From: Candidatus Nomurabacteria bacterium
GTDB taxonomy: Bacteria > Patescibacteriota > Minisyncoccia > Phycocordibacterales > UBA9973
Assembly (NCBI GenBank): GCA_026395935.1
Contig: JAPLXT010000056.1
Location: forward strand, 1 to 43,464
Direction: 5' to 3'
Length of the DNA stretch: 43,464 nucleotides
Below the pieces are notes generated by a model. The model was not told the origin of the DNA, did no database searches, and saw only the letters and a program-made list of their open reading frames with translations. This document shows, piece after piece, positions 17,668-40,749 of this stretch. The stretch's first letter is position 1. Each line of letters begins with the position of its first letter. The position numbers and the translations under genes are program-made.

Positions 17668-17674
17668 TTATTAT

Positions 17675-18157: not shown

Positions 18158-18674
18158 AATGATAAATAAAAATAAGAAAAATTTAGGTTTTACATTAATT
18201 GAAGTCCTTGTGGCTTGCTCTATTATCTCTTTATCTATGTTTGCTTTAATGCAGACAGCAGAGAATGGAATTAGACTTTCCAACGAGGCCCTTACTAAGT
18301 CACAAGCGAGTTTGCTTCTTGAAGAGGGAGCTGAGTCAATTAAAGCCATTCGCGATAGCTCTTGGACGACAATATCTAATTTAAATTTAAATACGCCGTA
18401 TCATTTATTTTTTAATACAACTATAAAAGTATGGGAGTTAAATGCTAGTACAACTAATTTATCGGGATGTATTCCTAGTTATCCTATCGATGGTATTTTT
18501 AATAGAACTGTTACTTTTTCTTCTGTAGGTAGGGATACAAATGATGAAATATTGGCATCAGGGGGAACGATAGATACTGGAACTAAAAAAGTAACAATAG
18601 TAGTCACTTGGAATTCTCAAAAAGTTTTAATATCTAAAAGCTTATCTTTTTATATAAGTAATATTTTTAATTAA
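18141..18674 (+). CDS. Type IV prepilin-like minor pilin
   Basis: ...KKNLG|FTLIEVLVACSIISL prepilin motif. Overlaps the previous gene by 17 nt. Confidence 0.75.
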   Translation: MQVQIKMINKNKKNLGFTLIEVLVACSIISLSMFALMQTAENGIRLSNEALTKSQASLLLEEGAESIKAIRDSSWTTISNLNLNTPYHLFFNTTIKVWELNASTTNLSGCIPSYPIDGIFNRTVTFSSVGRDTNDEILASGGTIDTGTKKVTIVVTWNSQKVLISKSLSFYISNIFN

Positions 18675-18676
18675 AA

Positions 18677-24585: not shown

Positions 24586-25046
24586 TAAATAAAACAATAG
24601 AAATATATACGGACGGTTCATCATTAGGAAATCCAGGTAGAGGTGGGTGGGGAGTTGTCGTTGTAGAAAAAGAAAAAATAATAGAAGAACTTGGTGGATG
24701 TGATAAGGACACGACGAATAATCGCATGGAGCTAGAGGCTGCCATCGAAGCTATTAAATATATAAATAAAAAACATAAACAAAGTACCGTGATTATTTAT
24801 GCAGATTCTTCTTATGTGTTAGGAGGAGTGACAAATTGGATTTTCGGCTGGGAGAAGAATGGATGGAGAACTGCAAATAAGAAGCCAGTCATGAATCAAG
24901 ATTTATGGAAAGAATTAATCGGGGTTGTTCGAGAATCGAAAGCTAATATTACTTGGCAGAAAGTGAAGGGACATTCAGGTCACGTTTATAATGATAAGGC
25001 AGATGAAATAGCTACAACCTATGCAGCTAACCAAAAAAGAAATTAG
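24582..25046 (+). CDS. rnhA: Ribonuclease HI
   Basis: IYTDGSSLGNPGRGGWG, NNRMELEAA, ADSSYV and KGHSGHVYNDKADEIA (DEDD catalytic residues). 4-nt overlap with recJ. Confidence 0.9.
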   Translation: MINKTIEIYTDGSSLGNPGRGGWGVVVVEKEKIIEELGGCDKDTTNNRMELEAAIEAIKYINKKHKQSTVIIYADSSYVLGGVTNWIFGWEKNGWRTANKKPVMNQDLWKELIGVVRESKANITWQKVKGHSGHVYNDKADEIATTYAANQKRN

Positions 25047-26319
25047 TTTAATAATCGTACTAATAATAATCGCATTAGTGCGGTTTTTCTTTTTTCTTCC
25101 AGGGAAACCCGCGTATCAAAATGCAGTAGGGAAGGAGGTAGTGCTCAAGGGAGTAGTGAGCGATGATCCAGATATCCGGCTTAAGAACCAGCACCTGAAT
25201 ATAAAATTGAAGGATAAAGATGTGAATATTTTGGTCTTCGTCGGCAGAGAAGAAGAAGTTTCCTATGGTGATGAAATTAAGGTAAGAGGTTTACTAGAAG
25301 AGCCAGAGAATTTTGTAACAAATTCTGGTAAAGAATTTAATTATAAAAGATATCTCGCGAATCAAGATATTTATTTTATGATTAAGAATGCTCAAATTGA
25401 GATTCTTTCAAGTGGCAATGGTAGTAAAATATATAGTTTGCTTTTCAAAATAAAGAATTCTTTCATGAAGAATGTTGATCAAGTGATTCCTATGCCTGAG
25501 AGTGATCTTGGTAATGGCCTTATACTTGGTGCTCGTGGAGGTTTCGATGAAGATACGAAGAATGAATTTATAAATACAGGCACCATTCACATCATCGCCC
25601 TATCTGGGTACAACGTATCAATAGTAGCGAATAATGTCATCAAAACATTGGGATTTATTTTCTCAAAGACTATATCAATTGTTTTCGGTGGTATTGTTAT
25701 ACTTTTATTTATTATCATGACTGGTGCTTCAGCCACCGCTATACGAGCGGGGATTATGGCATCTATTATGCTGTTAGGCAGGATGACAGATAGGAAATAT
25801 CTAGCAGGGCGTGCACTCATAGTGGCAGGGCTTCTGATGGTCGCTTATGATCCACGAGTCTTAGTAGATATGTCTTTCCAGTTGTCTTTCATCGCGACGG
25901 GTGGTGTGCTCTATCTTACGCCGAAAACTCTAAATTGGTTTAGATTTGTTCCACTACGTTTTGGTTTCAGAGAAATGGTGGCGAGTACCATCGCGGCGAC
26001 TATTTCAGTCATGCCAATACTTCTTTATCTGACGGGTGTGTTTTCGCTCGTATCTCTACCGGCTAACTTCTTAATACTTTTACTTATTCCTTACGTGATG
26101 TTTTTTATATTTGTTACGGGAATCTTTGGCTTCATCGCGCCTGTACTCGCAATATTCTTCGGGTATATTACATACATAATGCTAATGTACATACTGGGAG
26201 TAATTCACTTTTTTGGCTCGTTGCCGTTCGCCAGCTTTTCAATCCAATCTTTTCCATTGGTTTTAACAATCATAATTTATATATTTTTACTCAGGTGGAT
26301 TTTTAGAGAGAAGTCTTAA
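25021..26319 (+). CDS. comEC: ComEC/Rec2 DNA-uptake channel, N-terminal OB-like plus competence (membrane) domains only
   Basis: DUF4131-like region (VVLKGVVSDDP..EIKVRGLLEEPENF), then the competence-domain motif GTIHIIALSGYNVSIV and multiple TM helices. No metallo-beta-lactamase domain. Confidence 0.8.
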   Translation: MQLTKKEISLIIVLIIIALVRFFFFLPGKPAYQNAVGKEVVLKGVVSDDPDIRLKNQHLNIKLKDKDVNILVFVGREEEVSYGDEIKVRGLLEEPENFVTNSGKEFNYKRYLANQDIYFMIKNAQIEILSSGNGSKIYSLLFKIKNSFMKNVDQVIPMPESDLGNGLILGARGGFDEDTKNEFINTGTIHIIALSGYNVSIVANNVIKTLGFIFSKTISIVFGGIVILLFIIMTGASATAIRAGIMASIMLLGRMTDRKYLAGRALIVAGLLMVAYDPRVLVDMSFQLSFIATGGVLYLTPKTLNWFRFVPLRFGFREMVASTIAATISVMPILLYLTGVFSLVSLPANFLILLLIPYVMFFIFVTGIFGFIAPVLAIFFGYITYIMLMYILGVIHFFGSLPFASFSIQSFPLVLTIIIYIFLLRWIFREKS

Positions 26320-26896
26320 AATTATTTTCTATTGATTCCCAATTTATATTTTCGAAGAAGGCCTCTATATATTTTTTCTTTTCCGACGGGATGTAGTCTA
26401 GATAATATGCATGTTCCCACATATCAAGACAAAGAACAGGGGAGAGGCCAGTAAGTTGGCCTAGGTGGTGCTCGTCTATCCATGAGATAATTAATTTATC
26501 ACTCATTTTATCGTAATAAAGAATACTCCAGCCTGGACCACGAGTCGTGGCGACAAATTTGAAATGAACTAAAAAGTTTTCAAAAGAGCCCCATTCTTTT
26601 TCTATACTTGCATACAAGTCTCCTTTTTTATTTATTTCTTTTTGTTCTCCCGAAAGAGATGCGAAATAATATTCATGATTCCTCATACCATCGAATTCAA
26701 ATCCGAAACGTCGCTGTAATTCACCTAGGACGAAAGCATTTTTCTCTGGGTCACTTTTAAGTTCGCTTATTTTGTTGAAAATAAGATTCGTATTTGTGAC
26801 ATATCCTTTATAAAGTTTTAAGTGCTCCTCTATTGTTTTTGGGCTTATTCCTACTAGCTCTCCTATCTCAAATGTTTTTGTTTTAAATGTTTCCAT
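26303..26896 (-). CDS. Fe/Mn superoxide dismutase
   Basis: C-terminal DMWEHAYYLDY motif. Putative ligand His residues lie in ..EEHLK.. and ..RNHEYY... The 3' end overlaps the comEC 3' end by 17 nt. Confidence 0.85.
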   Translation of the reverse strand: METFKTKTFEIGELVGISPKTIEEHLKLYKGYVTNTNLIFNKISELKSDPEKNAFVLGELQRRFGFEFDGMRNHEYYFASLSGEQKEINKKGDLYASIEKEWGSFENFLVHFKFVATTRGPGWSILYYDKMSDKLIISWIDEHHLGQLTGLSPVLCLDMWEHAYYLDYIPSEKKKYIEAFFENINWESIENNFKTSL

Positions 26897-26936
26897 AATG
26901 TTTTTGTGTATTTAGTGTTAATATATAAAGTATATC

Positions 26937-27797
26937 ATGGAACGCATAAAAAAATACTTACCATATATATCCCTTATAATTCTTATTATTTTGACCGCTA
27001 GTATCTGGTTTTTAGTTTTTCAGCATAAAAATAATTATTTAAAAGTTGTATTTCTGGATGTCGGTCAGGGAGATGCTATTTATATAGAGGCACCCAATGG
27101 AAGGCAGATGTTAATAGACGGTGGTCCGGATGCGACCCTTCTCGCAAGTCTTGCAAAGGTAATGCCTTTTGCTGATCGATCTATCGACATGATTCTAGCT
27201 ACTCATCCAGATATGGACCACATCGGAGGATTCCCGCTACTATTAGACAATTATAAAGTGACGAGCATTATTGAGAATGACACCGTCTCTACAACTGCTG
27301 TCTCAGATAGTCTTGAAGAAAAAATTGCAAAGAAAAAAATAAATAAAATTATTGCACGACGTGGGATGCACATAATATTAGATGCAGAGAAAAATATTTA
27401 TTTTGATATTTTATTTCCAGACCGTGATATTTCAAACTTTGAAAGTAATGATGCTGGAATTGTAGGGAAGCTAGTCTATGGCAATGAGTCATTTATGTTT
27501 ACTGGGGACGCTCCTCTCTATACTGAGAATTTAATAGAATGGAACGAAAAAGATAGTACTTTAAAGTCCGACGTACTCAAGCTCGGTCACCACGGTTCGC
27601 GTACTTCATCGAGTACCCTTTGGCTTGAAAAGGTGAATCCCGAAATAGCAATAATATCAGTAGATAAGAATAACAAATATGGTCATCCGCACAAGGAATT
27701 ACTCGACAGACTTTCATCTCTTAAAATTCCATTTTTAAGTACGGCCGACCAAGGTAATATAATTTTTGAAACTGATGGAAAGAAAATTTTTAGATAA
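26937..27797 (+). CDS. Metallo-beta-lactamase-fold protein, ComEC C-terminal-domain type, with TM anchor
   Basis: VGQGDAIYIE, THPDMDHIGG and LKLGHHGS motifs, as in the ComEC nuclease-like domain. N-terminal TM helix. Confidence 0.8.
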   Translation: MERIKKYLPYISLIILIILTASIWFLVFQHKNNYLKVVFLDVGQGDAIYIEAPNGRQMLIDGGPDATLLASLAKVMPFADRSIDMILATHPDMDHIGGFPLLLDNYKVTSIIENDTVSTTAVSDSLEEKIAKKKINKIIARRGMHIILDAEKNIYFDILFPDRDISNFESNDAGIVGKLVYGNESFMFTGDAPLYTENLIEWNEKDSTLKSDVLKLGHHGSRTSSSTLWLEKVNPEIAIISVDKNNKYGHPHKELLDRLSSLKIPFLSTADQGNIIFETDGKKIFR

Positions 27798-28807: not shown

Positions 28808-29233
28808 ATGCCTACAATTAACCAATTGGTTCGCAAGAGCCGCAAAATAATCAAGAGAAAATCTAAAGCTGTGGCTTTGGCTCGTGGTTTTAATTCTATT
28901 AAGAACAAGCCAGTTTATTATCCAGCTCCATTCAAGCGTGGAGTTTGTACGAAAGTTTCTACTACTACACCTAAGAAGCCTAACTCAGCTCTCCGAAAGA
29001 TTGCTCGTGTTCGTCTTACAAATGGTATGGAAGTAACAGCATATATTCCAGGAGAAGGACACAACTTACAAGAACACTCAGTGGTTATGATCCGTGGTGG
29101 ACGTGTGAAAGACCTTATCGGAGTACGTTATCATATCGTTCGTGGACGTCTTGATACGACAGGAGTTGAGAAGCGTCGCCAATCAAGAAGTCTCTATGGT
29201 ACAAAAACACCTAAAGCAGCAGTTAAGAAATAA
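28808..29233 (+). CDS. rpsL: 30S ribosomal protein S12
   Basis: [10 protein letters not shown]... and the highly conserved [10 protein letters not shown] motif. Confidence 0.95.
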
Positions 29234-29244: not shown

Positions 29245-29715
29245 ATGCGAAGAAAAATAAAAAATAAAAATATAGTAGAACCAGATATTTTGTACAAGTC
29301 TCAGAAGCTTGCGAAGTTCATAAACAATATTATGCTTCATGGAAAGAAGGAGACTGCTCGTAAGTCAGTTTATAAAGCTTTTGAAATTATCAAAGAAAAG
29401 ACCGGCAACCCTAATCCACTAGAAGTTTTCGATACAGCTTTGAAGAATGCAGGTCCTACAGTAGAAGTTCGTTCACGTCGTATCGGTGGTGCAAACTACC
29501 AGGTCCCTCGCGAAGTTCGTCCTGAGAGACGCCTTGCCTTAGCAATGAGATGGATGATAGATGCAGCACGTAGTAAGAAAGGAGCACCTATCGCCGAGAA
29601 GCTTGCCGAAGAATTGATACTTGCTTCAAAGAATGAAGGTTCAGCTATCAAGAAGCGTGATGATACCCACAAGATGGCAGAGAGTAACAAAGCATTCGCC
29701 CACTTCGCTTGGTAA
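29245..29715 (+). CDS. rpsG: 30S ribosomal protein S7
   Basis: 156 aa, ..EVRSRRIGGANYQVP.EVRPERR..LA.RW.., canonical S7. Directly after rpsL. Confidence 0.95.
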   Translation: MRRKIKNKNIVEPDILYKSQKLAKFINNIMLHGKKETARKSVYKAFEIIKEKTGNPNPLEVFDTALKNAGPTVEVRSRRIGGANYQVPREVRPERRLALAMRWMIDAARSKKGAPIAEKLAEELILASKNEGSAIKKRDDTHKMAESNKAFAHFAW

Positions 29716-29734
29716 TCAATATTTAAACAAAAAC

Positions 29735-29760
29735 AAAAACTCCCCACCCGGGGAGTTTTT
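29735..29760 (+). terminator. Intrinsic terminator after rpsG
   Basis: AAAAACTCCCC (29735-29745) / GGGGAGTTTTT (29750-29760), 11-bp stem, ACCC loop, built-in T tract. Confidence 0.8.
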
Positions 29761-29766
29761 GATTTC

Positions 29767-29794
29767 TTGACAAAAGTTGAATAAGGAGTAGTTT
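29767..29794 (+). promoter_or_regulatory. Candidate promoter of island unit 1
   Basis: TTGACA (29767-29772), 16 nt, TAGTTT (29789-29794). The context GATTTCTTGACAAA recurs at 30151-30166. Confidence 0.4.
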
Positions 29795-29859
29795 TAAGGT
29801 AAATTTGAATGCGTATTGTATTTTTAGTATAAATTTCTAATTTTCTAAATTTTATAATT

Positions 29860-30063
29860 ATGTCGAAAGATCCATGTGGAGCCTGCGGGACTCCGAAATC
29901 AAAAAATCATTGGGATAAAGATGATTGCCATCACTGCTACCCAGAGAATTTTTATGAGCTAAAAACTATTCCAGCTCAAATAAAAAATTCTGGAGACATT
30001 GTAGACAGCCCAATTTTTGAAGGCCAAGGAATTGAATTTTTGGCTGAACTAACTGAGGCTTAA
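29860..30063 (+). CDS. Small 4-Cys (CxxC...CxxC) protein with acidic tail, unknown function
   Basis: 67 aa; CGAC at residues 6-9 and CHHC at 23-26. Own promoter-like and terminator signals. Confidence 0.5.
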   Translation: MSKDPCGACGTPKSKNHWDKDDCHHCYPENFYELKTIPAQIKNSGDIVDSPIFEGQGIEFLAELTEA

Positions 30064-30080
30064 TGCCTGAAGAAATTAGT

Positions 30081-30114
30081 AAAAGGATGTCAAAAGCATC
30101 CTTTTATTTTTTTT
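30081..30114 (+). terminator. Intrinsic terminator of island unit 1
   Basis: AAAAGGATG (30081-30089) / CATCCTTTT (30097-30105), 7-nt loop, then ATTTTTTTT. Confidence 0.75.
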
Positions 30115-30148
30115 ACCTACTCAACGCTATCGCGTCAGAGAGGTAAAG
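30111..30148 (+). repeat. Junction hairpin element copy 1 (core AACGCTATCGCG)
   Basis: TTTACCT (30112-30118) / AGGTAAA (30141-47) arms, CTC/GAG extension, ACGC-TATC-GCGT apex. Core at 30123-30134. Confidence 0.8.
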
Positions 30149-30157
30149 AGGATTTTC

Positions 30158-30185
30158 TTGACAAAGATACCTAAAAGCTTAAGAT
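30158..30185 (+). promoter_or_regulatory. Candidate promoter of island unit 2
   Basis: TTGACA (30158-30163), 16 nt, TAAGAT (30180-30185). Same GATTTTCTTGACAAA context as unit 1. Confidence 0.4.
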
Positions 30186-30216
30186 GAATATAAATGTTAA
30201 ATTTAAAATATAGACT

Positions 30217-30726
30217 ATGATTAGCTACATTTCCTTTAAAAAAGCTTGTAAGGAGCTTAGAATTAATCCAAATATATTTGGAAATAATCCATTAGTAGGT
30301 GGACATCCACTTGTAACTTTTGAAGAACCCTTCGATTTTGGGACAATGAATTTTCCCGAGAAACAGCTGAAGCAGATTTTGATGATTGGTCAAATTATTT
30401 ACAATTTGGAATCACAAGTTAATTTGGGCCACATGTATAATCTGACGACAAAGAAGGGAAGGGAAGATTACAGGAGAGATAGCGAAATAAAAAAGATTTT
30501 GCCCATTCTGCAAGAGTCAATTGAATTCTGGCTTGAGACCGGACTGAAGAAATGTAAGTCAGATAAAAATCTCATGTTCTGCAATGGAAGAGTTTTTGAA
30601 GTTGATCCAAAACAGACAGAGAAAATGGATGAAATGAACGATTACATGAAAGAAGTCCATCGTGATTTTCTTTACAAAGAGGCTATGTCTGAAATATCTG
30701 CCAGGGATGTGATTTTAAATGCTTAA
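30217..30726 (+). CDS. Hypothetical 169-aa protein, no recognisable family
   Basis: Uninterrupted ORF bracketed by promoter-like and terminator signals. No motif recognised. Confidence 0.5.
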   Translation: MISYISFKKACKELRINPNIFGNNPLVGGHPLVTFEEPFDFGTMNFPEKQLKQILMIGQIIYNLESQVNLGHMYNLTTKKGREDYRRDSEIKKILPILQESIEFWLETGLKKCKSDKNLMFCNGRVFEVDPKQTEKMDEMNDYMKEVHRDFLYKEAMSEISARDVILNA

Positions 30727-30743
30727 TGCATGAAAAATTTAGT

Positions 30744-30776
30744 AAAGGGATGTCAAAAGCATCCCTTTATTATTTT
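30744..30776 (+). terminator. Terminator hairpin of island unit 2
   Basis: AAAGGGATG (30744-30752) / CATCCCTTT (30760-30768). Relative to unit 1 it carries a compensatory A>G / T>C pair. The following T tract is interrupted (ATTATTTT). Confidence 0.6.
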
Positions 30777-30810
30777 ACCAGCTCAACGCTATCGCGCCAG
30801 AGAGGTAAAG
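30773..30810 (+). repeat. Junction hairpin element copy 2 (core AACGCTATCGCG)
   Basis: TTTACC / GGTAAA arms, CTC/GAG extension. Core at 30785-30796. Confidence 0.8.
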
Positions 30811-30811
30811 G

Positions 30812-30820
30812 TGGTATAAT
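30812..30820 (+). promoter_or_regulatory. Extended -10 promoter element (TGgTATAAT) for the PaaX-like gene
   Basis: TGGTATAAT ends 6 nt before the ATG at 30827, with no Shine-Dalgarno between them. This implies a leaderless or near-leaderless mRNA. Confidence 0.4.
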
Positions 30821-30826
30821 ATAATT

Positions 30827-31327
30827 ATGAGTGCAGAGAAATTAATTTTAGAATATTTGAGTGAGAATAAGAGTAAGCCTGCGATTAGATATGCAGGTGT
30901 TCGCTTAGGATTTTTAGGTTTACCAGATTTTAAGTATTATAAATACCAGACACTTGCCAATAGATGTTCTTTATTAAAAAGTGGGGGATATATAAAAGAA
31001 ACGAATGGTATTTATTTTATAACACAGAAAGGTGAAGAATTTTTAAATAAGAAAAATAAAACGGTTTTTAAAAAATTTGAATCTAGTAAAACAGATAAGG
31101 ATCCAAAAGATTTACTTTTGTTATATGATGTACCAGAAGATAAGAAGGCACATAGAGATTGGCTTAGAAAAGAGCTTGTAAATTTCAATTATATTATGAT
31201 TCAGAGAAGTGTTTGGGTGGGGCCTTCTCCATTACCGAAAGAATTTACACAATATCTAAAGGACATTGGGCTAAAGGACACAATAAAAACATTTAAATTA
31301 GAAAAAGGTTATAACTTACAAAAATAA
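30827..31327 (+). CDS. PaaX-like transcriptional regulator (wHTH plus 'DIPE...QxSVWV' module)
   Basis: N-terminal winged-helix-like segment. C-terminal LLLYDVPEDKKAHRDWLRKELVNFNYIMIQRSVWVGPSPLP matches the remembered PaaX-family pattern (FDIPE..R..LR..L...GF..LQ.SVWV.P). Confidence 0.55.
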   Translation: MSAEKLILEYLSENKSKPAIRYAGVRLGFLGLPDFKYYKYQTLANRCSLLKSGGYIKETNGIYFITQKGEEFLNKKNKTVFKKFESSKTDKDPKDLLLLYDVPEDKKAHRDWLRKELVNFNYIMIQRSVWVGPSPLPKEFTQYLKDIGLKDTIKTFKLEKGYNLQK

Positions 31328-31371
31328 CATTTTACCTGTCTAACGCTATCGCGTTTGGGAGGTAAAATGTT
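31326..31371 (+). repeat. Junction hairpin element copy 3 (core AACGCTATCGCG)
   Basis: Perfect 12-bp outer stem AACATTTTACCT (31326-31337) / AGGTAAAATGTT (31360-31371), overlapping the stop codon. Core at 31342-31353. Confidence 0.8.
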
Positions 31372-31479
31372 ATAAGGTAGATATTTATTTTAATAGGAAG
31401 GTTTTTAATTTAAAAAGTTATCCACAGTTTTGGAAGTTTTTATATTTACAAATAAAATTTTTTCTTTTATAATCTAGGA

Positions 31480-32103
31480 ATGGAAAAATTTAAAAAAGTT
31501 TTTGCCCACGTTTTAAAAATTTTAAAGTGGGCCTTTCTAATTTTAGTGGGAGTTTTTATTATTTTAGTTATAGCTAGGATTCCTCACGCATTAAATCAAC
31601 AGAAGACAGACGCTCAAATTATTAAAATTCATAATACAAAACTCACCCTTCCTGATGTAATGGGGGAGAACTTGCCACCATACCCTGGCGTAGAGGCGGA
31701 CAAGACCGTGCAGGGCATAGATGCAAACAATAATGGTATTCGTGATGATGTTGAGCTTGCTATATTTAAAGAATATCCAAATTCTGCGAAAACCCGCGCA
31801 GTACTTTTGCAGTATGCACTAACGTTGCAAATGGAGGTTATGCAACCAATAATAAATACATCTACTGCTACAGAAGTTGCAAGAGAACAAAGTAGAGCAT
31901 ATGTTTGTATTGGTGATGTTTTATCAAGGGAAAATTTAGAAAAATTTAATAAAGAGGCTGATACTTTTACTAATTTTGTAAAAGAAAGAATGTTTAATAC
32001 AGAAGAGAGAAAAAATAATAGAAGTATTTTTGTTGATAATGTAAGAAGTTATTCAAATTTAGAACAAAAATGTGATATAGATTTGTTTATTTTATCAAAT
32101 TAA
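31480..32103 (+). CDS. N-terminally membrane-anchored extracytoplasmic protein, unknown function
   Basis: One TM helix (WAFLILVGVFIILVIA), EF-hand-like loop DANNNGIRDDVE, otherwise helical-looking. TATAAT (31468-31473) lies 6 nt before the ATG. Confidence 0.5.
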   Translation: MEKFKKVFAHVLKILKWAFLILVGVFIILVIARIPHALNQQKTDAQIIKIHNTKLTLPDVMGENLPPYPGVEADKTVQGIDANNNGIRDDVELAIFKEYPNSAKTRAVLLQYALTLQMEVMQPIINTSTATEVAREQSRAYVCIGDVLSRENLEKFNKEADTFTNFVKERMFNTEERKNNRSIFVDNVRSYSNLEQKCDIDLFILSN

Positions 32104-32123
32104 ATTATTTTAATAAAATTTAT

Positions 32124-35100
32124 ATGAAGAATAAAAAATTATTTATTCTCGGTTTCTCCTTGTTGTTTTCTCTCTTATCCTTAACTGCTAATGCAGAGGG
32201 TGTATGTTCTAAGAGTGGCTATACTATACTTACTATTAATGGGATATTTACAGACAAAGAAGGTGCACTTAATAATAAAGATAGTTTACAAAGAAGTTTA
32301 GGTGCAGGATTTAAAAATGAACCTCTCAATGTTGACTATGTTTACAACCCTACTCATGCGCAAGGCTTCATAGATGTTCTAGATACTATCGCTCAAGGAT
32401 ATTTAAATCAGAAATCAGATTATGATTTAGTAGAAATGCTTAATAATGCAAGCACAAAAGTAAAGACAGAGAAACTTCTACTGGTAGGTCATTCGCAAGG
32501 GAATTTCTATGCCAATAATTTTTATGACAAAGTTGCTGATATGGAAGGCGGAGTGCCGAAGCAGTCCATCGGAGTTTATAGTGTTGCTACTCCAGCTTCA
32601 CGCGTTGCAGGTGATGGTCTATATTTAACTTCAGATACGGATAAAGTTATCGCAAAGTTAGTAGGTAGTGCTAAAAAGATAATGCCTCCGAATACCCATA
32701 TTAGTTATACTAACAATGAAGATATTTGGGGTCACGATTTTTACAAAATATATTTAGCTCATAATGGTGACAGAATTATCGGAGACCTCAAAACATCTTT
32801 AGATAAATTAAAAACAAATGATATTCAATCCTCAAATACTCCTTGTTTGTCTCCAGTAAAAATTTCTTTAGCTCACAAAATTACCGGTGCAATGCTTGCT
32901 GTTACAGATTTTTCTGCAAACACTATTATAAATAGTGTAAAACAAACAGTAACCCTTGCATATAATTTATCAAAAAAAGCAACGATATTGGTAGGGGAGA
33001 ATTTAGCAAATATTGCCAGTAAGAACCTTGCTTTTGCTGGTTCTTCAATTATGGCAGGCCCACTTTTTAGTATAAGCGATCAATCTCTCAATAATACCCA
33101 GTTTAGCAATATGCAAGTCTTAGAAGGGGTAGAGAATAATATTCAAGAAAATACCAATCTAGATACCAATATTCCTGTGGTCACTGATACAAATGTTGAG
33201 GAGACAAACTTGAATCCTACTCCAACTGATATCGAGCCTGTAAGTACTACGCCTGATTCTGGTGTATCTTCTGGTGGAAGTAGCAATGGTGGTGGAAGTA
33301 ATGATAGTGGGGAAAATAGTGATGATAATCCGACAGAAGATAATAAAGATGACAAAGTAGAGGATAAGACTGCGCCAGTAATAACTTTAGTCGGAGAAAG
33401 TGTTATCAATATAGAAGTTGGCTCGACTTATGTAGATGCTGGAGCTACAGCTCTTGATGATATAGATGAAGTGGTAGAAGTAGTCTCTTCTGGTATTGTG
33501 GATAATATAAAAGCTGGGGTTTACACTATTACTTATACGGCGACGGATAAGGCAGAGAACGTGGCGACTTTAAATCGTACCATAAATGTTATAGCTCCGA
33601 ATATTAAAGATACAACTGCGCCAGTCATAACTTTAAATGGAGAAAGTTCTGTGAATATTGAATTGAATACGACTTACGTCGACGCTGGAGCAACTGCGAC
33701 TGATGATATAGATGGAGTGGTAGAAGTTGTGACGACTGGAATTGTAGATAATACAAAAGTTGGAATTTATACTCTTACTTATACAGCGACGGATAAAGCC
33801 TTGAATATTTCGACACTAACTCGCATAGTTGAAGTGAGTCAACCTGCAATGGCTCTCTCATTTCCACCTGCATCAATGACGACTTCAGGTGATGGAGTTT
33901 ATCCGAATAGTGCAAAGAGAAAGATAGAAGAATTTCTTTACCAAATAGTTTATACAAGCAAAGACAATACTCCTCCTTATAGTGTAACGCTTCGAAGAAA
34001 GAATTTGAAAACGGGAGTTTATTTAAATGATCAACAAATGAATACAATCAACAATAGTTCCAATAGAGTTTGGCCGGCTGAATTAAGAGATGGGAATTAT
34101 GCAAATGGGGAACTGTATAGCGTTAGTAATTCTGTAGATGATGAAGGTGAGTATGAGTATTATTTCGTAATTGTTGATAAAGATTTTAATATAGTAAAAA
34201 AATTTGGAGAAAATAATAATTTGAAAATCACGGCTACTCCGGCTACAAATTATTATCCTAGCAAAGCTTCTTTTGGGACAGAGAATGGTGACGGAAAAAA
34301 TTGGCAAGTTTGGATTTTTGATAAATCAAATATTTATGATTGGTCTGATACTTATATAAATAATTATTTGCATCAGCATTTCAAAGTTCAAAATTATGAT
34401 TATATAAGTGGTGGTGTTTTGAGACTTGATCTTTTTAGTAGTGATCCAAGGAATGGTTTTGAACCTGGAGATATTACTACAGGGGGTGTATCTGAATATC
34501 GTCTTCCTGTTGATCCGCTCAGTCTTCCTGCCAGCACTCTTCATGATGTTGATATACAGTGGGATAGCACTGGTTATAATTACACTTATACTTTAGCCTC
34601 AAATGCTTCTGTCGCAAGTACAGGGCACGTGAACATTACGAATATATCCAATAATCTTTGGATAGGTTGGGGTATTTATAATCCGAAAGTCTATTGGGCT
34701 GCAAGTGTTTATGCTCCATTCTTCGAAAGTGTTTGGGTTGGGGCTCCATCTCAATTTGCAGAGGGGAGAACAGGAGGAAAATATGTATACCCAGCTCCTT
34801 CACCGATATACAAAGTTCATACGGAGCCAGTTAAGAGTGGAGAAAAATTAATAAATACTTTTGATTTTCAAAATTTGTCACCGGTAGTAAATGGAGTTGT
34901 AGATAATACTAATCATACTATTAATCTGACTGTGCCGTACGGTACAAACATTTCAAGCATGACCCCAATAATTACAATTTCAGATAAGTCGACGATTGCT
35001 CCGCAAAGTGGGGTGGCGAAAGACTTTACAAATAATGTTACTTATACCGTCACAGCAGAAGATGGAACTACACAATCTTATATAGTGACAGTTACAGTTT

Positions 35101-35483
35101 TGCCAAATCCCAATCCAGACGACCCGGACAGTACTCCTCCAACTCTCCGAAGTTATGCATTGAATAATACTCAAAGTAATATAACTATCAATCCCGTGAC
35201 TTCAAATCTTACTATTTCACTTAGGGCGAATAAAAAAGTAAACTGGCTTTCTATAAAGATTATAAAAACAGATAATGAAGATGTTTCAAAACTATATCAG
35301 TCCGATACGAAGAATTGTCGTGATGGTGAAAATTCATGTGAAAAGCTTTGGGATAAAGGGGAGCTGACTCATGGTATTTTACAAAACGGAAATTATAAAA
35401 TACGAGTACGCTTGGAAGATACCTCAGGTAAAATTTATGAGGAATATCTGCCTTATATTATTACAGTAATTGGCCAATCATAA
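32124..35483 (+). CDS. Large secreted alpha/beta-hydrolase (lipase-like) protein with Ig-like repeat domains
   Basis: Signal peptide ending ..LTANA. GHSQG nucleophile elbow (Ser codon 32493-32495) with downstream SDTD and WGHDF. Ser/Gly/Asp-rich linker, two 82-aa DUF5011-like Ig repeats, and further beta-sandwich-like C-terminal modules. Confidence 0.7.
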   Translation: MKNKKLFILGFSLLFSLLSLTANAEGVCSKSGYTILTINGIFTDKEGALNNKDSLQRSLGAGFKNEPLNVDYVYNPTHAQGFIDVLDTIAQGYLNQKSDYDLVEMLNNASTKVKTEKLLLVGHSQGNFYANNFYDKVADMEGGVPKQSIGVYSVATPASRVAGDGLYLTSDTDKVIAKLVGSAKKIMPPNTHISYTNNEDIWGHDFYKIYLAHNGDRIIGDLKTSLDKLKTNDIQSSNTPCLSPVKISLAHKITGAMLAVTDFSANTIINSVKQTVTLAYNLSKKATILVGENLANIASKNLAFAGSSIMAGPLFSISDQSLNNTQFSNMQVLEGVENNIQENTNLDTNIPVVTDTNVEETNLNPTPTDIEPVSTTPDSGVSSGGSSNGGGSNDSGENSDDNPTEDNKDDKVEDKTAPVITLVGESVINIEVGSTYVDAGATALDDIDEVVEVVSSGIVDNIKAGVYTITYTATDKAENVATLNRTINVIAPNIKDTTAPVITLNGESSVNIELNTTYVDAGATATDDIDGVVEVVTTGIVDNTKVGIYTLTYTATDKALNISTLTRIVEVSQPAMALSFPPASMTTSGDGVYPNSAKRKIEEFLYQIVYTSKDNTPPYSVTLRRKNLKTGVYLNDQQMNTINNSSNRVWPAELRDGNYANGELYSVSNSVDDEGEYEYYFVIVDKDFNIVKKFGENNNLKITATPATNYYPSKASFGTENGDGKNWQVWIFDKSNIYDWSDTYINNYLHQHFKVQNYDYISGGVLRLDLFSSDPRNGFEPGDITTGGVSEYRLPVDPLSLPASTLHDVDIQWDSTGYNYTYTLASNASVASTGHVNITNISNNLWIGWGIYNPKVYWAASVYAPFFESVWVGAPSQFAEGRTGGKYVYPAPSPIYKVHTEPVKSGEKLINTFDFQNLSPVVNGVVDNTNHTINLTVPYGTNISSMTPIITISDKSTIAPQSGVAKDFTNNVTYTVTAEDGTTQSYIVTVTVLPNPNPDDPDSTPPTLRSYALNNTQSNITINPVTSNLTISLRANKKVNWLSIKIIKTDNEDVSKLYQSDTKNCRDGENSCEKLWDKGELTHGILQNGNYKIRVRLEDTSGKIYEEYLPYIITVIGQS
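33363..33854 (+). repeat. Tandem 246-nt coding repeat (two Ig-like DUF5011-type modules)
   Basis: D(K/T)TAPVITL.GES..NIE...TYVDAGATA.DDID.VVEVV..GIVDN.K.G.YT.TYTATDKA.N..TL.R occurs twice back to back (33363-33608 and 33609-33854). Confidence 0.85.
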
Positions 35484-35531
35484 AAAGGATTTACTCAAAC
35501 AAAGGTATGTGTGGGGGAGAGAAGATTTTTA

Positions 35532-35560
35532 TTGCAAAATTTATGGATTTGTTGTATATT
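35532..35560 (+). promoter_or_regulatory. Candidate dedicated promoter for fusA
   Basis: TTGCAA (35532-35537), 17 nt, TATATT (35555-35560). Confidence 0.5.
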
Positions 35561-35633
35561 TGGGGGACAAAAGACTTGAATGTCTACCTGTAAAAATCAG
35601 GTAATTTTATTTTTAGCAACATTAATTATATAT

Positions 35634-37778
35634 ATGGAAAGAGATTATCCACTAGAGAAAGTAAGAAATATTGGAATTATTGCTCACATCGATGCAGGTA
35701 AAACTACGACGACTGAGCGCGTGCTTTTTTATACAGGTGTGTCGCACAAAATAGGTGAAGTTCACGATGGGGAAACAACTACCGACTGGATGGAGCAAGA
35801 GCGTGAACGCGGAATTACTATTACTTCTGCGGCTGTTACTTGTTTCTGGACTCCAACTTATGCTGCTATCACTGATAAGACCAAGAAGCATCGTTTCAAC
35901 ATTATCGACACCCCAGGACACATTGACTTCACAGTGGAAGTGAAGAGATCTCTTCGTGTGCTCGATGGAGCTGTTGTCGTTTTCGACGGAGTTGCTGGAG
36001 TAGAACCTCAATCTGAAACTAACTGGCGCTATGCTGATGAGGCAAGTGTTCCTCGTGTTTGTTTTATCAACAAGCTAGATAGAACAGGTGCATCTTTCGA
36101 ACATTCATATGCGACAATTCTTGATCGTCTCACAAAGAAAGCTATCCGAATGCAGATTCCTATTGGTCTCGAAGAGAATCACGAAGGAGTTATTGATCTT
36201 CTAAACATGAAGGCGTACTACTTTGAAGGGGAGATGGGGAACAAAGTTATCGAAAAAGAAATCCCAGAAAATCTAGTTGCTGAAGCAGAAAAATATCACG
36301 CCGAACTTATTGAAAAGATCGTTGAACAAGATGATGCAGTGATGAATGATTATTTAGAAGGCAAAATTCCTGATATTGATACTTTGAAAAAATTAATGAG
36401 AAAAGGAGTTATTGCTAATGAAATTTTCCCAGTGTTTGCTGGATCAGCTTTGAAAAATAAAGGTGTCCAGCTAGTGCTCGATGCTGTTGTCGACTACCTT
36501 CCTTCTCCACTTGATATTCCAGCAATTCTAGGAACTAACCCTGATACAGATGAAAAAGATTCTCGCCCCGCTTCAGATGAAGCACCATTTTCAGCGCTTG
36601 CTTTCAAAGTAGCTACTGACCCATTCGTCGGACAAATTATTTTCTTCCGTGTTTATTCAGGTTCTCTTTCCGCCGGAAGTTATGTTTACAATCCACGCAC
36701 TCGTAATAAAGAAAGAATCGGACGAATTCTCCGAATGCATGCGAACGACCGTGAAGAAGTGAAGAAAGTTTACGCTGGAGAAATCGCAGCCGCTGTTGGT
36801 CTTAAAGATACTATTACTTCCGATACACTTTGTGACGAAGAACACCCAATCGAACTTTATCGTATTATTTTCCCAGAGCCAGTTATTCAACTACGTGTTG
36901 AGCCAAAGACAAAAGCAGACCAAGAGAAGATGGGTATGGCGCTTTCAAGACTTGCTCAAGAAGATCCTACTTTCCGTGTGACTACCGATGCTGAGACAAA
37001 TGAGACTATCATCGCCGGAATGGGTGAACTTCATTTGGAAATCATTGTTGATCGTATGAGACGTGAATTCTCTGTGGAGACAAACGTTGGTAAACCTCAA
37101 GTTGCATACCGTGAGACTATTACAGGCGAAGCTCAAGTAGAAGGTAAGTACATCAAGCAGTCAGGAGGCCGTGGTAACTATGGTCACGTGAAGATCAGAA
37201 TTAAGCCAATGGATCAGAGTATTAAAGCTGAAGATTTACCAAAGAATACAAAGCGTGAGAAAGGTTTCGAATTCATCAACACAATTAAAGGAGGTGCTAT
37301 TCCACAAGAATACATTCCTGCTTGTGAGAAAGGATTCAAAGAAGGTCTCGACCGCGGAGTGCTCGCTGGATTCAAACTTGAAAATGTTTCTGTTGAACTT
37401 TATGATGGAACGTATCACGATGTGGACTCCAACGAAATGGCCTTCAAGATTGCTGCAAGTATGGCAATTCAAGATGCATGTAAAATGGCCCGCCCTGTTA
37501 TCCTTGAGCCGATGATGCAAGTAGAAGTAGTTACTCCAGACAAATTCATGGGTGATGTTACAGGAAGTCTCTCATCAAAACGTGGACTCATCGAAGGTAT
37601 GGAGGCTCGTGGTATGAACCAAGCAGTCCGTGCAGTTGTACCTCTATCCGAAATGTTTGGATACATGACGACTCTTCGCTCTATGACAGAAGGACGTGCA
37701 GGATTCACAATGGAATTCCTACGCTATGATATAGTTCCACAAAGTGTCGCAACATCAATTATTGAAAGTAGAAAATAA
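35634..37778 (+). CDS. fusA: Translation elongation factor G
   Basis: [25 protein letters not shown] aligns with the canonical EF-G N-terminus, so ATG 35634 is preferred over the track start at 35580. DTPGH and NKLD GTPase motifs are present. Confidence 0.92.
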
Positions 37779-37905: not shown

Positions 37906-38517
37906 ATGCAAAAACAAAAAGGAAATATGGGTGTAGTAGTTTCTTTTATTATTGTTATTGGCCTTATTGTATTGGCTGTTTATTCACTTATGCATAGACC
38001 CGTTAAAGTTGATCCATTAGAAGGGATTAAGGGTGTAGACAGTAGTGCACCGACAACAGCAGGAGATAGCGCAACAGCAACAACAGGAGAACAACAAGCA
38101 CAACCAACAGAACAAAAAACTATGGAACCAAATACAAATGCAAATAAGAATGTTAGAAATTTAAGTAATTTTACTCCAGTAGCTAAAGTCTCAACACTTG
38201 AGAAGATTGATCAAGTTGTCGGTACAGGGAAAGAAGTACAAGCTGGCGCAACGGTGAGCGTACATTATACAGGAGCAGTCGCTGCTACAGGTGCGATTTT
38301 CCAATCTTCAAAAGATTTTGGAACAGAGCCAGTAACATTTCCTCTCTCAGGAGTTATTAAAGGATGGACAGATGGAATTCCAGGGATGAAAATAGGTGGT
38401 ACTCGTCGTTTAGTTATACCTGCAGCTATGGCCTATGGAGCCAACCCACCATCTGGTTCTGGTATTCCTGCGAACGCAGACTTAGTCTTCGACGTTGAAC
38501 TAGTAGCAATTAAATAA
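37906..38517 (+). CDS. Membrane-anchored FKBP-type peptidyl-prolyl cis-trans isomerase
   Basis: TM anchor, low-complexity linker, then VHYTG...F.SS.D...P..F.L..VIKGW..G...MK.GG.R.L.IP...AYG FKBP core. Confidence 0.85.
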   Translation: MQKQKGNMGVVVSFIIVIGLIVLAVYSLMHRPVKVDPLEGIKGVDSSAPTTAGDSATATTGEQQAQPTEQKTMEPNTNANKNVRNLSNFTPVAKVSTLEKIDQVVGTGKEVQAGATVSVHYTGAVAATGAIFQSSKDFGTEPVTFPLSGVIKGWTDGIPGMKIGGTRRLVIPAAMAYGANPPSGSGIPANADLVFDVELVAIK

Positions 38518-38524
38518 ATTATTT

Positions 38525-40021
38525 ATGAAAGAGAAAGGTAAATTATTTTTCCAAAAGAACATAAGAAGGAAGCGCACTTGGGCGATTCTCGTTCTTCTAC
38601 TTCTTGTTGGAAGTTATTTTATCTTTAGGACACCTGCAAGCGTGGCGAATACTACTACAGACATTGCAAAAATTTCAGACTTAAAGCAAACGGTTCTAGC
38701 TACCGGTCAGGTAGTTTCTAATACTGATTTAAGTTTATCATTCAATTCGACAGGTATTGTAAAATCTTTAAAAGTAAAAGTGGGGGATAAGGTTAAGCAA
38801 GGACAAGTTTTAGCTACTCTTGATCAAGGGGCAGAGCTTGCTGCACTGACGTCTGCACGTGGCGCACTTGCGGCCGCGCAAGCCAGGCTGAAACGAACCA
38901 TCGAAGGATCTTCCAATGAAGAAATAGCCCTTGCAGAGATAACGCTTGCCCAGACCAAACTGACTCAAGAGACCCTTGTAAATAATGCGTATCAGAATCT
39001 CCTCAACAGCACCCCCGAAGCCAACCTATACCCTACAGAGAGAAATTATGAATCACCAACCATCAGTGGTAACTACAACCTAGGTAAAGAAGGCCAGATA
39101 ATAGTCAGTATTGATCTAAATGCTAGTTCTTTTAAAACTCACGGTCTACTTGCCGTAGATGGTGACGTCTCTACCACCACTCCTCAACCCATCGGTAACT
39201 CAGGCCTTTTCATAGAATTCCCCACAGGAGTCACTCTCAACTACACCGACTGGAGTATTGATATCCCTAACAAGAAAGCATCAAACTACTTAACCAATTA
39301 CAATGCATATCAGACGGCAGTCTCTCAAGCAAAGTTTGCTATCGATCAACGTACTGCCGAGCTCGCTATCAAGAAGTCCGCTGCTCGTGGATCCGACATT
39401 GATTTAGCCAATGCCGATATTTTATCTGCGGAAGGGCAGGTACAAGCGGCACAGGCTCGTTACAATAATACAATTATCTCGGCCCCCGTAGATGGAACGA
39501 TTACAAGTATAGATATTAAAATTGGTGAGCAAGCTATGGCTCAAAAGAGTGCAATAGTTTTGCAAGATGTTTCCAATATTTATATTGAGACGAATATCAA
39601 CGAAGCCAATATTAGTAGTTTGTCTCTCGGTCTTCCGATAGATATTACTTATGATTCTTTTGGAACAGATAAAATTTTCAAAGGTATTATTACCAAGATT
39701 GATCCAGCGGGAACTGTTGTCTCTGGCGTTGTGAATTATAAAGTTACAGCAAGCACAGAACAAGTGAAAGATTTGAGACCTGGCATGACGGCAAACATGA
39801 CTATCAAGGTTGCCGAGAAAGATGGCGTGATAGCTATCCCATCTCGCTCAATTATTATGAATAGTAATGGTGATAGAGTTTTGCGATTAATCACAAATAC
39901 AAAAAATAAAAGTTATAAAGAGGTTCCTATAATCACAGGACTAGAAGGTGATGGAGGACTTGTAGAGGTTATAAAAGGACTTTCCATTGGCGACGAGTTT
40001 GTAATATTAATCAAAAAATAA
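38525..40021 (+). CDS. HlyD/MacA-type membrane-fusion (periplasmic adaptor) protein
   Basis: N-terminal TM, lipoyl-like segment (VKVGDKVKQGQVLATLD), coiled-coil Ala/Gln-rich hairpin, beta-barrel segments. Leads the ABC genes. Confidence 0.8.
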   Translation: MKEKGKLFFQKNIRRKRTWAILVLLLLVGSYFIFRTPASVANTTTDIAKISDLKQTVLATGQVVSNTDLSLSFNSTGIVKSLKVKVGDKVKQGQVLATLDQGAELAALTSARGALAAAQARLKRTIEGSSNEEIALAEITLAQTKLTQETLVNNAYQNLLNSTPEANLYPTERNYESPTISGNYNLGKEGQIIVSIDLNASSFKTHGLLAVDGDVSTTTPQPIGNSGLFIEFPTGVTLNYTDWSIDIPNKKASNYLTNYNAYQTAVSQAKFAIDQRTAELAIKKSAARGSDIDLANADILSAEGQVQAAQARYNNTIISAPVDGTITSIDIKIGEQAMAQKSAIVLQDVSNIYIETNINEANISSLSLGLPIDITYDSFGTDKIFKGIITKIDPAGTVVSGVVNYKVTASTEQVKDLRPGMTANMTIKVAEKDGVIAIPSRSIIMNSNGDRVLRLITNTKNKSYKEVPIITGLEGDGGLVEVIKGLSIGDEFVILIKK

Positions 40022-40022
40022 A

Positions 40023-40745
40023 ATGTTAATCGAACTCAAGAATATAGTAAAGAATTACGTGAATGGCGACGTGGTTACAAGAGTATTGCGCGATGTTGAT
40101 CTCTCTGTCGATGAAGGGGAATTTGTTGCTATCATGGGGCCGTCGGGTTCTGGTAAGTCGACTCTCATGCATACTATCGGCTTCCTTGATCGTCCGACTT
40201 CTGGTACATATCTTTTTGATGGGGAAAACACACAAAGTTTTACTGACGATGAGCTTGCTCGAATCAGAAATAAAAGAATTGGATTCGTTTTTCAATCTTT
40301 CAATCTTCTTCCCCGTACTTCTGTCTTGGACAACGTAATGCTTCCACTTCTTTATAGTGGAGACAAGTCGGGTTATGAAAGTCGTGCTAAGAAAGCATTG
40401 GAATCTGTCGGTCTGGGGGAGAGAATTCACTTCATGAGTAATCAAATTTCCGGAGGGCAGAAGCAGCGCGTTGCTATTGCTCGCGCACTTGTCTGTGATC
40501 CGAAAGTTATTTTTGCCGATGAGCCGACTGGTAATTTGGATTCAAAGAGTGGAGCCACCGTCATGCACATACTTGAAGAATTGAACAAAGAGGGTCGCAC
40601 TATAATACTCGTCACTCATGACAAGCAGGTCGCACTCCATGCGAACCGCATTGTAACTATTCGCGACGGAAAGATTGTAGAAGATAGACTTGTCCCAAAT
40701 TCTGAAAGAGTTCACTCAAAAGAAATAAAAGAGGAAGAGGAATAA
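40023..40745 (+). CDS. ABC transporter ATP-binding protein, MacB/LolD/YknY type
   Basis: Walker [10 protein letters not shown], signature [14 protein letters not shown], Walker [13 protein letters not shown]-loop LVTHD. Confidence 0.9.
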
Positions 40746-40749
40746 TGCG

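Follow-up and report, generated by a model that had tools for sequence, protein, structure and literature searches.

In a 43,464-nucleotide (nt) stretch of DNA from Candidatus Nomurabacteria (Patescibacteria, Paceibacteria), hereafter the window, to which all positions refer, the genes rpsG and fusA of the str cluster are separated by an interval of five open reading frames (ORF1 to ORF5), all on the same strand and encoding proteins of 67, 169, 166, 207 and 1119 amino acids (aa). Comparison with related contigs shows that this interval is made up of four or more modules that vary separately, and is not a single island. We consider it probable that the spacer is a flexible-genome hotspot, in which several independent transcription units are arranged around a resident gene, ORF3, which encodes a small PaaX-like protein (“mini-PaaX”), and are exchanged by homologous recombination. 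A preliminary description of this DNA had treated the 5.9 kb as one block; its modules vary independently and switch sides of ORF3.

The relatives compared are ten places on contigs that encode exactly the same S7 protein, with flank DNA 86–94 % identical (L-numbers denote fetched comparison loci). RpsL and RpsG are 100 % identical across these contigs (L003–L012), whose DNA after rpsG varies, and the EF-G protein of the window is 96–98 % identical to those of L003–L011. Together with the window they show four states of the site: the spacer is empty in L003, L006 and L010, where the terminator runs into the fusA promoter in ~150 nt; L004, L005, L007, L008 and L009 carry homologues of ORF3, ORF4 and ORF5 and nothing else; other small ORFs stand in L011 (two, one with a C-terminus common to ORF2) and in L012 (a further, different one); and the window holds all five genes. 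A single metagenome (JGI 3300014208) alone yields several variants of the site (L006, L099, L104, L107). The earlier claim of strain-variable accessory DNA in the str region is therefore upheld; the five-gene set is not lineage-wide. ORF3 is common at the site, which speaks against a single acquired island.

The edges of the variable DNA are sharp. Against the empty-site relatives, the alignment ends at 29759 and restarts at 35524, placing the extra DNA at ~29760–35523; left-edge breaks with relatives fall at 29759–29772, and alignment with relatives (breakpoint 30766) assigns ~29760–30765 to the two left cassettes, those of ORF1 and ORF2. The rpsG terminator hairpin is kept in relatives with differing stem letters, and the terminator, the separate fusA promoter and the five ORFs between them all lie where the preliminary description had placed them (Table 1). 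The composition of the block deviates mildly (GC 0.340 versus 0.374), and GC at third codon positions (GC3) of its five genes is 0.22–0.37, inside the 0.19–0.40 of other window genes, which fits exchange within the lineage.

The same spacer receives unrelated DNA in the wider class. Among 66 Paceibacteria species representatives with rpsG and fusA on one locus, it mostly measures 7–500 nt, and in 13 (~20 %) it contains 0.8–7.4 kb of unrelated genes, including those for a 2010-aa surface protein, pilin-like proteins and a possible toxin–antitoxin pair (by eye); in further Paceibacteria rpsG does not lie within several kb of fusA. The rpsG–fusA spacer is thus a recurrent insertion hotspot in Paceibacteria, with varied content in one spacer, among close relatives, between conserved flanks. 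These insertions mark a hotspot and not an unusually fixed junction, so the suggestion that the site is unusually conserved does not hold; nor does tuf follow fusA here.

To judge from its distribution and divergence, ORF3 is not a newcomer to this spacer. Its family is large, with 608 matches among 90 %-identity clusters and 2955 representatives (E ≤ 0.001) among 50 %-identity clusters, and a mean column identity of 73 % over 38 aligned sequences. In a survey of 80 metagenome loci fetched by the family profile, homologues of at least 62 % identity lie nearly all between rpsG and fusA; one or both of these genes adjoin ORF3 in 21 of 25 such loci (L098–L122), as well as in L093–L095, and ORF3 is the sole gene of the spacer in L105, L114, L115 and L121. 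ORF3 DNA divergence follows that of rpsG (Spearman 0.50, some pairs being discordant), and in place of part of a newly acquired island, as had been proposed, the gene emerges as a lineage-typical occupant. “Resident” here means frequent, not universal. More distant homologues stand alone at other housekeeping positions that are conserved, and have no variable cargo, as in TsaD–ORF3–GDH (four loci) and RNase HII–ORF3–RsmE (two loci; neighbours named by eye from N-terminal sequences), and two paralogues can share one contig. ORF2 and ORF3 of the window are identical to the NCBI proteins NTV03_01895 and NTV03_01900 from a Nomurabacteria metagenome-assembled genome, and the nearest species representatives by EF-G are likewise named Nomurabacteria.

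The ORF3 protein matches PaaX_M (PF20803) with an E-value of 9.6e-15 and 54.9 bits (cut-off 24); HTH_45 is matched under its cut-off (E 1e-3, 19.4 bits versus 25.5), and no match to the PaaX N-terminal domain was reported in the Pfam scan. An AlphaFold2 (AF2) model with a predicted local distance difference test score (pLDDT) of 79.5 has E. coli PaaX (8a39) and Rv0674 as its closest PDB folds, followed by Cas2 proteins; its residues 40–74 form a helix-strand-strand-helix that aligns with 8a39 (regional pLDDT 64–83). The full-length PaaX model TIGR02277 gives 22.7 bits against a cut-off of 264.55, over profile positions 58–139 of 279, and ORF3, ending at residue 166, lacks the C-terminal helical (ligand-binding) domain of PaaX. 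The assignment as a PaaX-like regulator accordingly stands at the level of domain and fold, and not for a full-length PaaX. The C-terminal 70 residues come close to the Cas2 models PF09827 (21.8 bits, cut-off 23.8) and TIGR01573 (24.4 bits, cut-off 24.5), both sub-threshold; the Asp ending strand 1, equivalent to the metal-binding residue of Cas2, is invariant in the family, as is Y100-D101. PHROGs and PADLOC returned weak regulator- or Cas2-type matches and nothing else.

A 34–36-nt palindrome stands both before and after ORF3 in the family (67 non-redundant loci, 43–100 % identity). The upstream copy ends ~17 nt ahead of the ORF3 ATG, and the second starts 1–10 nt past the stop codon in most homologue loci. 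Across 109 unique copies, the outer arm pairs 5–8/33–36 are 88–98 % complementary, using 3–4 pair types, versus 32–41 % in shuffles, and the centre C-x-A-T-x-G is invariant. Positions 11–13 are non-complementary (~40 %), and a bipartite protein site therefore fits better than a continuous stem. The arms follow the protein lineage (TTTACC/GGTAAA, TTCCATC/GATGGAA, TGTTAGA/TCTAACA and TACTTATAA/TTATAAGTA) and differ between paralogues of one contig (L157 and L160). In the window, the 12-nt core AACGCTATCGCG occurs three times versus 0.05 expected (0/100 shuffles); the copies are not dispersed, all three per 43 kb being inside the rpsG–fusA interval. In one sub-lineage, the palindrome is repeated in tandem, 2–3 copies at a 43-nt period flanking ORF3 to the left and to the right (L125 6253–6988, L126 439–1173, L127 9863–10597), resembling iterons or centromere-like sites.

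The position of the palindromes points to autoregulation. A TAnnnT −10 box, often in the extended form, lies 4–9 nt ahead of the ATG in 67 of 71 non-redundant homologue loci, and with this box 6 nt from the ATG in the window, the ORF3 mRNA is probably leaderless; the upstream palindrome, on the promoter as predicted, overlaps its −35 region. E. coli PaaX has the operator TGATTC-N27-GAATCA and represses its own promoter (PMC9493321). By analogy, the palindromes are best read as the bipartite operator of an autoregulated mini-PaaX: a predicted ORF3 dimer would bind TTTACC-N24-GGTAAA, the copy over the −35 region of the leaderless promoter would mediate autorepression, and the copy after the stop codon would be a second operator and, as RNA, a 3′ hairpin. 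Transcribed copies of the palindrome may have an added RNA role.

Two of the window palindromes are embedded in longer repeats, A and B, of 91 nt and 89 % identity, each opening 5 nt before a stop codon (GCTTAATGC), and the terminator found ahead of the upstream palindrome is the same after three different cargo genes. Reaching past the palindrome into the terminator and last codons, these repeats could serve as internal homology. Palindrome A is hybrid-like: its left flank resembles that of upstream copies and its right flank (GGTAAAGAGG...TTGACA) that of downstream copies; at least one exchange, homologous or site-specific, seems to have involved the palindromes. The repeated junction elements of the preliminary description are therefore real, but rather than a generic cassette border they are the pair of palindromes that goes with ORF3 throughout its family. 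Likewise, its promoter–ORF–terminator units are seen for ORF1 and ORF2 but not for ORF3, which has the palindrome at its 3′ end and no U-tract terminator. In L004, L007 and L008, an extra palindrome lies between ORF5 and the fusA promoter, which the window does not have.

Mobile-element genes were sought widely. No integrase, transposase or recombinase was found in any window ORF with Pfam, NCBIfam or PHROGs, extending to the whole window what had been claimed for the interval, and no homing-endonuclease domain (LAGLIDADG, GIY-YIG, HNH, His-Cys, PD-(D/E)xK) was found with these or PADLOC. The window contains no tRNA, no CRISPR array and no cas1, the last being absent also from the called genes of the fetched homologue loci, and a CRISPR remnant was ruled out on this ground. 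None of 50,697 phage records and none of 72,556 plasmid records matches ORF3, neither ORF3 nor ORF2 has relatives in IMG/VR, and Rfam places no family in the interval. No consistent flanking (target-site) duplication is seen across relatives; a TTGCAAAA-like candidate suggested by L005 is absent from L004 and L007. The marks of an integrase-type island or prophage (integrase, att repeats, tRNA) are thus lacking here.

The surroundings do suggest a route of exchange. DNA-uptake genes (PilB, PilC, pilins, ComEC, RecJ) lie 3–15 kb upstream, and genes for natural competence and recombination have been reported in Patescibacteria (PMC12455944). The segments 14680–18674 and 22927–27797 encode a PilB-like ATPase, a PilC-like platform protein, two N-methyl pilins, RecJ, ComEC and a metallo-beta-lactamase-domain protein. 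Over the 9 kb upstream, the nearest relative alternates, with window and L004 93–94 % identical where window and L005 are 84–89 % identical, and the reverse 3 kb on; such mosaic identity is, as a sequence signature, the pattern left by frequent recombination. On the explanation we favour, two optional cassettes to the left of ORF3 (ORF1 and ORF2, both equipped with a promoter and a terminator) and an optional surface module to its right (the membrane protein ORF4 and the secreted serine-hydrolase/immunoglobulin (Ig)-like protein ORF5) would come, go and change places through homologous recombination following DNA uptake. The very conserved rpsL/rpsG and fusA flanks would supply the homology, with ORF3, the palindromes and the common terminator adding internal stretches, and no dedicated integrase would be needed.

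Several observations weigh against this explanation. Homologous recombination is a reading of context, and the hybrid flanks of palindrome A could equally come from a site-specific event. ORF3 is missing in the close relatives L003, L010, L011 and L013, whose EF-G is 94–98 % identical, and the tetranucleotide distance of the block, a mild signal, is in the top 1 % of same-size windows. As to the operator, covariation of the arms is equally expected of a hairpin, and the transcribed palindromes fold much better (A −17 kcal/mol, z −5.2; C −22.2, z −6.8) than the promoter copy B (−10.7, z −1.9), so that an RNA role is possibly the main one there. The downstream palindrome, 27–80 nt upstream of the ORF4 or fusA −35 boxes, is not in a position to repress either, which leaves control of the cargo by ORF3 unsupported.

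This folding is one argument for an alternative we hold to be unlikely, in which the palindromes serve chiefly as hairpins in RNA or DNA (as terminators, insulators or stabilisers of mRNA 3′ ends) and ORF3 acts on another target. G–T mismatches also outnumber A–C in downstream copies (59 versus 31) and not in upstream ones (45 versus 48), and the palindrome is the sole hairpin past the stop codon of ORF3 and, in relatives, of ORF5. A hairpin role would not explain why the upstream copy, which precedes the −10 box and would not be transcribed from the ORF3 promoter, is equally conserved, or why the centre is invariant in sequence and not merely paired while positions 11–13 are unconstrained; a U tract is usually absent after the hairpin, the arms change in step with the protein lineage, and the spacing of 6-bp arms by 24 bp matches the known layout of the PaaX operator. 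Rather improbable, in our view, is that ORF3 and its two palindromes form an active recombination or homing unit, an integrase-free docking site that would render the spacer recombinogenic and at which cassettes are captured, excised and swapped, the winged helix recognising the palindromes and the Cas2-like domain (Y100-D101) nicking or cutting, in the manner of an integron platform without a recombinase or of a free-standing homing endonuclease between conserved genes. Much of the pattern would follow from such a unit: ORF3 is bracketed by two copies of one palindrome in every lineage, the borders of cassettes carry extra palindromes (behind ORF1 in the window, behind ORF5 in L004, L007 and L008), the mixed flanks of palindrome A are those expected of exchange between copies, cargo families swap sides of ORF3, ORF3 is patchy among close relatives while the site is fixed, and the Cas2 metal-binding Asp is invariant, with TIGR01573 missed by a tenth of a bit. 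However, distant homologues sit alone at housekeeping positions without variable cargo, paralogues on one contig have different arms, as is typical of regulators that do not cross-talk, the divergence of ORF3 tracks that of rpsG, and the spacer takes unrelated insertions in species without ORF3. Moreover, the reach of the 91-nt repeats into terminator and stop codon suggests a homology-driven rather than a site-specific process, no known nuclease or recombinase family is matched, and the closest fold, PaaX, is a repressor. In a weaker version, ORF3 could be a regulator specific to the lineage, lodged within the str cluster and tying expression in the neighbourhood of fusA to a signal.

Three further explanations fare less well. 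That its genes are an ancestral arrangement, with differential loss accounting for all variation, seems improbable. ORF3 and its palindromes are indeed widely common to the site, and the palindrome after ORF5 looks deleted from the window relative to L004 and L007, so decay does occur; but one cargo family lies on differing sides of ORF3, cargo sets mostly do not overlap (15 families, most in a single lineage), the ORF4–ORF5 module is found at other loci elsewhere, and the wider class mostly has a 7–500-nt spacer. Acquisition of the whole 5.9 kb in one event and by a mobile element of unknown kind, as the host-interaction island of the preliminary description, is very improbable. Relatives with an identical S7 lack the block, the GC of the block lies below that of its flanks and no same-size window deviates more in tetranucleotide profile; set against this are intermediates (ORF3–ORF4–ORF5, ORF3 alone, ORF1 with ORF3, ORF3 with an ORF2-like gene), the presence of ORF3 at the site across the lineage, unremarkable GC3, and the lack of mobile-element genes and of a consistent target-site duplication. 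An assembly chimera joining contigs at repeats can be all but dismissed. The source is metagenome-assembled, the 91-nt junction repeats could mislead an assembler, and the rpsG-to-ORF1 join has no independent copy, exact-protein look-ups of ORF1 and ORF2 having returned nothing. Nevertheless, the ORF2–ORF3–ORF4–ORF5 joins recur in independent assemblies at 100 % and 99.8 % identity (L001, L002), which makes a chimera unlikely, the rpsG-to-ORF3 and ORF5-to-fusA joins recur in the related strains L004, L005, L007 and L008, and the rpsG terminator continues unbroken into a promoter also present in L011.

The cargo itself is diverse. In the lineage, most of it has no Pfam family, and sets differ largely from locus to locus; one relative carries a secreted Lcl_C protein. 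ORF1, probably a zinc ribbon to judge from its paired CxxC motifs, has no family match in Pfam, NCBIfam, PHROGs or PADLOC; a homologue of 66 % identity lies directly upstream of ORF3 in L100, and the promoter sequence of its cassette also precedes a different ORF in L011. ORF2 has three close homologues in a set of 5.8 billion proteins. Its homologues of 40–43 % identity follow ORF3 in L103, L109 and L110, and in L108 and L011 truncated 61-aa forms either precede ORF3 or stand by themselves; like the ORF2 family, a 117-aa family occurs to the left or to the right of ORF3, depending on the locus.

ORF4 and ORF5 co-occur in L004, L005, L007 and L008. The first 240 residues of ORF5 make up a domain that is specific to Patescibacteria and has no Pfam match; its residues H123, S124 (GHSQGN), D173 and H204 are invariant in 37 homologues. 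Its AF2 model (pLDDT 79, predicted template-modelling score 0.75) is closest to cutinase, B. subtilis LipA and monoacylglycerol lipases (probability 0.98–0.99, E ~2e-3), with the fold, nucleophile elbow and Ser-Asp-His triad of an alpha/beta-hydrolase; a sequence search against the PDB matched the Ig/DUF5018 part and left the hydrolase domain unmatched. The model thus supports a lipase-like serine hydrolase at fold level, and the lipase/Ig-repeat protein of the preliminary description is borne out at that level, with the hydrolase fold from structure prediction and the Ig-like and DUF5018 domains from Pfam. A host-interaction role would be compatible with such a secreted protein, albeit not as part of a single island. 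In L178 and L179, unrelated loci, the hydrolase and Ig/DUF5018 parts are encoded by separate genes after an ORF4 homologue (53–65 % identity), indicating that the module is relocatable and that ORF5 is a fusion; the set adjoins a restriction–modification system in L178. In L179 (4325–10083) it stands immediately upstream of rplJ–rplL, again beside ribosomal protein genes. Two Ig-like units of ORF5 (33363–33823) have a 246-nt period and are 76 % identical, and the ORF5 homologues of L004, L007 and L008 seem one unit shorter (1040–1043 versus 1119 aa), which suggests copy-number variation.

Table 1. Features of the rpsG–fusA region of the window
Feature	Position	Strand	Remarks
rpsL	28808–29233	+	Pfam S12, E 2e-36
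rpsG	29245–29715	+	Pfam S7, E 2e-59
rpsG intrinsic terminator	29734–29761	+	12-bp stem and U run; −19.3 kcal/mol, z −5.1
Cassette 1 promoter-like site TTGACA-16-TAGTTT	29767–29794	+	
Cassette 1 promoter-like site TTGAAT-17-TATAAA	29805–29833	+	
ORF1, 67 aa	29860–30063	+	CxxC...CxxC; ORF call
Junction repeat A	30058–30148	+	Terminator hairpin 30078–30108 (−13.6 kcal/mol, z −6.8); palindrome A 30112–30147 (TTTACC-N24-GGTAAA)
Cassette 2 promoter TTGACA-16-TAAGAT	30158–30185	+	
ORF2, 169 aa	30217–30726	+	Without known family
Junction repeat B	30721–30810	+	Terminator 30743–30769; palindrome B 30774–30809 (proposed operator)
ORF3 extended −10 TGGTATAAT	30812–30820	+	Ends 6 nt before ATG
ORF3, 166 aa	30827–31327	+	Predicted winged helix and Cas2-like (“mini-PaaX”); PaaX_M PF20803
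Palindrome C	31331–31366	+	4 nt past ORF3 stop; proposed second operator and RNA 3′ hairpin
ORF4–ORF5 promoter TTTACA-17-TATAAT	31445–31473	+	
ORF4, 207 aa	31480–32103	+	N-terminal hydrophobic membrane anchor
ORF5, 1119 aa	32124–35483	+	Signal peptide, alpha/beta-hydrolase domain (GHSQGN), two PF16403 Ig-like, DUF5018
Right edge of variable spacer, then fusA promoter and leader	35484–35633	+	Edge at ~35523; empty-site alignment restarts at 35524
fusA promoter TTGCAA-17-TATATT	35532–35560	+	Present in every relative, block-free ones included
fusA (EF-G, 714 aa)	35634–37778	+	All Pfam EF-G domains; ATG 35634 agrees with gene calls in relatives

Some further features of the flanks were noted. A longer ORF from 35580 was rejected as fusA in favour of the ATG at 35634. 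The fusA leader has a small hairpin and U run (35585–35612), conserved in relatives, whose fold (z −0.94) is not significant, so that an attenuator was discounted; in L004, L007 and L008 a 27-nt insertion in the leader (L004 15310–15390) creates an additional stem. After fusA (37906–43156), the window encodes an FKBP isomerase and a HlyD/ABC/FtsX (MacAB-like) efflux set, and in the relative L003, SIMPL, secE and nusG are the next conserved genes. Upstream, the sole Rfam match of the window, at 11.6 kb, is an adenosylcobalamin (AdoCbl, B12) riboswitch (11639–11794, + strand; 60.3 bits, gathering score 50), which follows a gene for a B12-dependent ribonucleotide reductase (8763–11105) and an ECF S-component-like gene, and precedes a DUF4430 gene (11820–12266) and a 515-aa low-GC ORF. 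Low-GC stretches (0.275–0.33) at 6500–8000, 11500–13500 and 17000–19500 may be other flexible regions; they include a 573-aa ORF (6747–8468) without a Pfam match. A 128-nt piece of the intergenic region at 4.6 kb (4547–4672) recurs inverted and 96 % identical in the ComEC/SOD spacer of L005 (6934–7061), and may be a small mobile or repeated element.

The locus resembles several known systems without coinciding with any of them. ORF3 shares with PaaX, which in E. coli and Pseudomonas represses the paa operons in response to phenylacetyl-CoA, a predicted winged helix followed by the central Cas2-like domain, with 8a39 as best fold, and has a palindrome over its own promoter with 6-bp arms at 24-bp spacing, where the PaaX operator has 6-bp arms at 27 bp. 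It differs in length, PaaX having ~305–316 aa and a C-terminal helical domain with the ligand site, in the lack of nearby paa genes, and in its proposed second operator after the stop codon and conserved central core. To the Cas2/VapD nucleases it is linked by sub-threshold profiles, fold and the invariant Asp, but its Cas2-like domain is fused to a predicted winged helix, its family resides at housekeeping loci, it stays below the curated Cas2 thresholds, and it is associated with neither cas1 nor a CRISPR array. REPtrons consist of a RAYT gene flanked by REP palindromes; the likeness to these and to IS200/IS605 ends lies in a small ferredoxin-fold protein gene between palindromic hairpins, whereas the invariant residues of ORF3 include no HUH or catalytic Tyr motif and its palindromes are not dispersed. 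Integrons are comparable in their small same-strand ORFs with imperfect palindromes between them and varying order and content. Integron attC sites are 57–141 nt long, whereas the palindromes here measure 36 nt; their left core fits RYYYAAC, but the right (GTCAGAG, GCCAGAG or GTTTGGG) is not GTTRRRY, there is no intI in the window, each cassette has a promoter to itself, and loci without cassettes still have the palindromes beside ORF3. An attC identity was ruled out on these grounds.

Phage morons are autonomous promoter–gene–terminator units found as insertions among conserved genes. The cassettes of ORF1 and ORF2 are similar, in that a promoter-like site and an intrinsic terminator go with either ORF and the conserved units around them stay intact, but they are chromosomal in a Patescibacterium and accompanied by no phage genes or matches. 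At the level of the locus, integration hotspots between core genes are a concept said to be that of Oliveira, Touchon and Rocha (2017), and additive and replacement flexible islands have reportedly been described by Rodriguez-Valera. Like flexible islands, the spacer has one fixed position, varied content, no integrase, cargo that is unknown or surface-related, and mosaic flanks; it differs in lying inside the str cluster, in holding few genes, and in being built round a resident regulator with palindromes. In the literature, no paper was found linking PaaX with Patescibacteria, and nothing relevant was found on rpsG–fusA insertions in this group. As of a 2022 review, no structure of a PaaX–operator complex had been reported (PMC9493321).

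Patescibacteria have tiny genomes and depend on hosts, and little is understood of the ways in which their surface and accessory genes become diverse. Strain-level turnover of cassettes inside the str cluster, close to uptake genes and without mobile-element genes, offers a model for recombination-driven plasticity. ORF3 represents a large, undescribed family of ~165-aa “half-PaaX” regulators, whose lineage-specific palindromes provide protein–site pairs for tests of how the PaaX fold recognises DNA. The combination of ORF4, hydrolase and Ig-like domains is a recurring secreted module in Patescibacteria, which could act on lipids or host surfaces and is a candidate host-contact factor.

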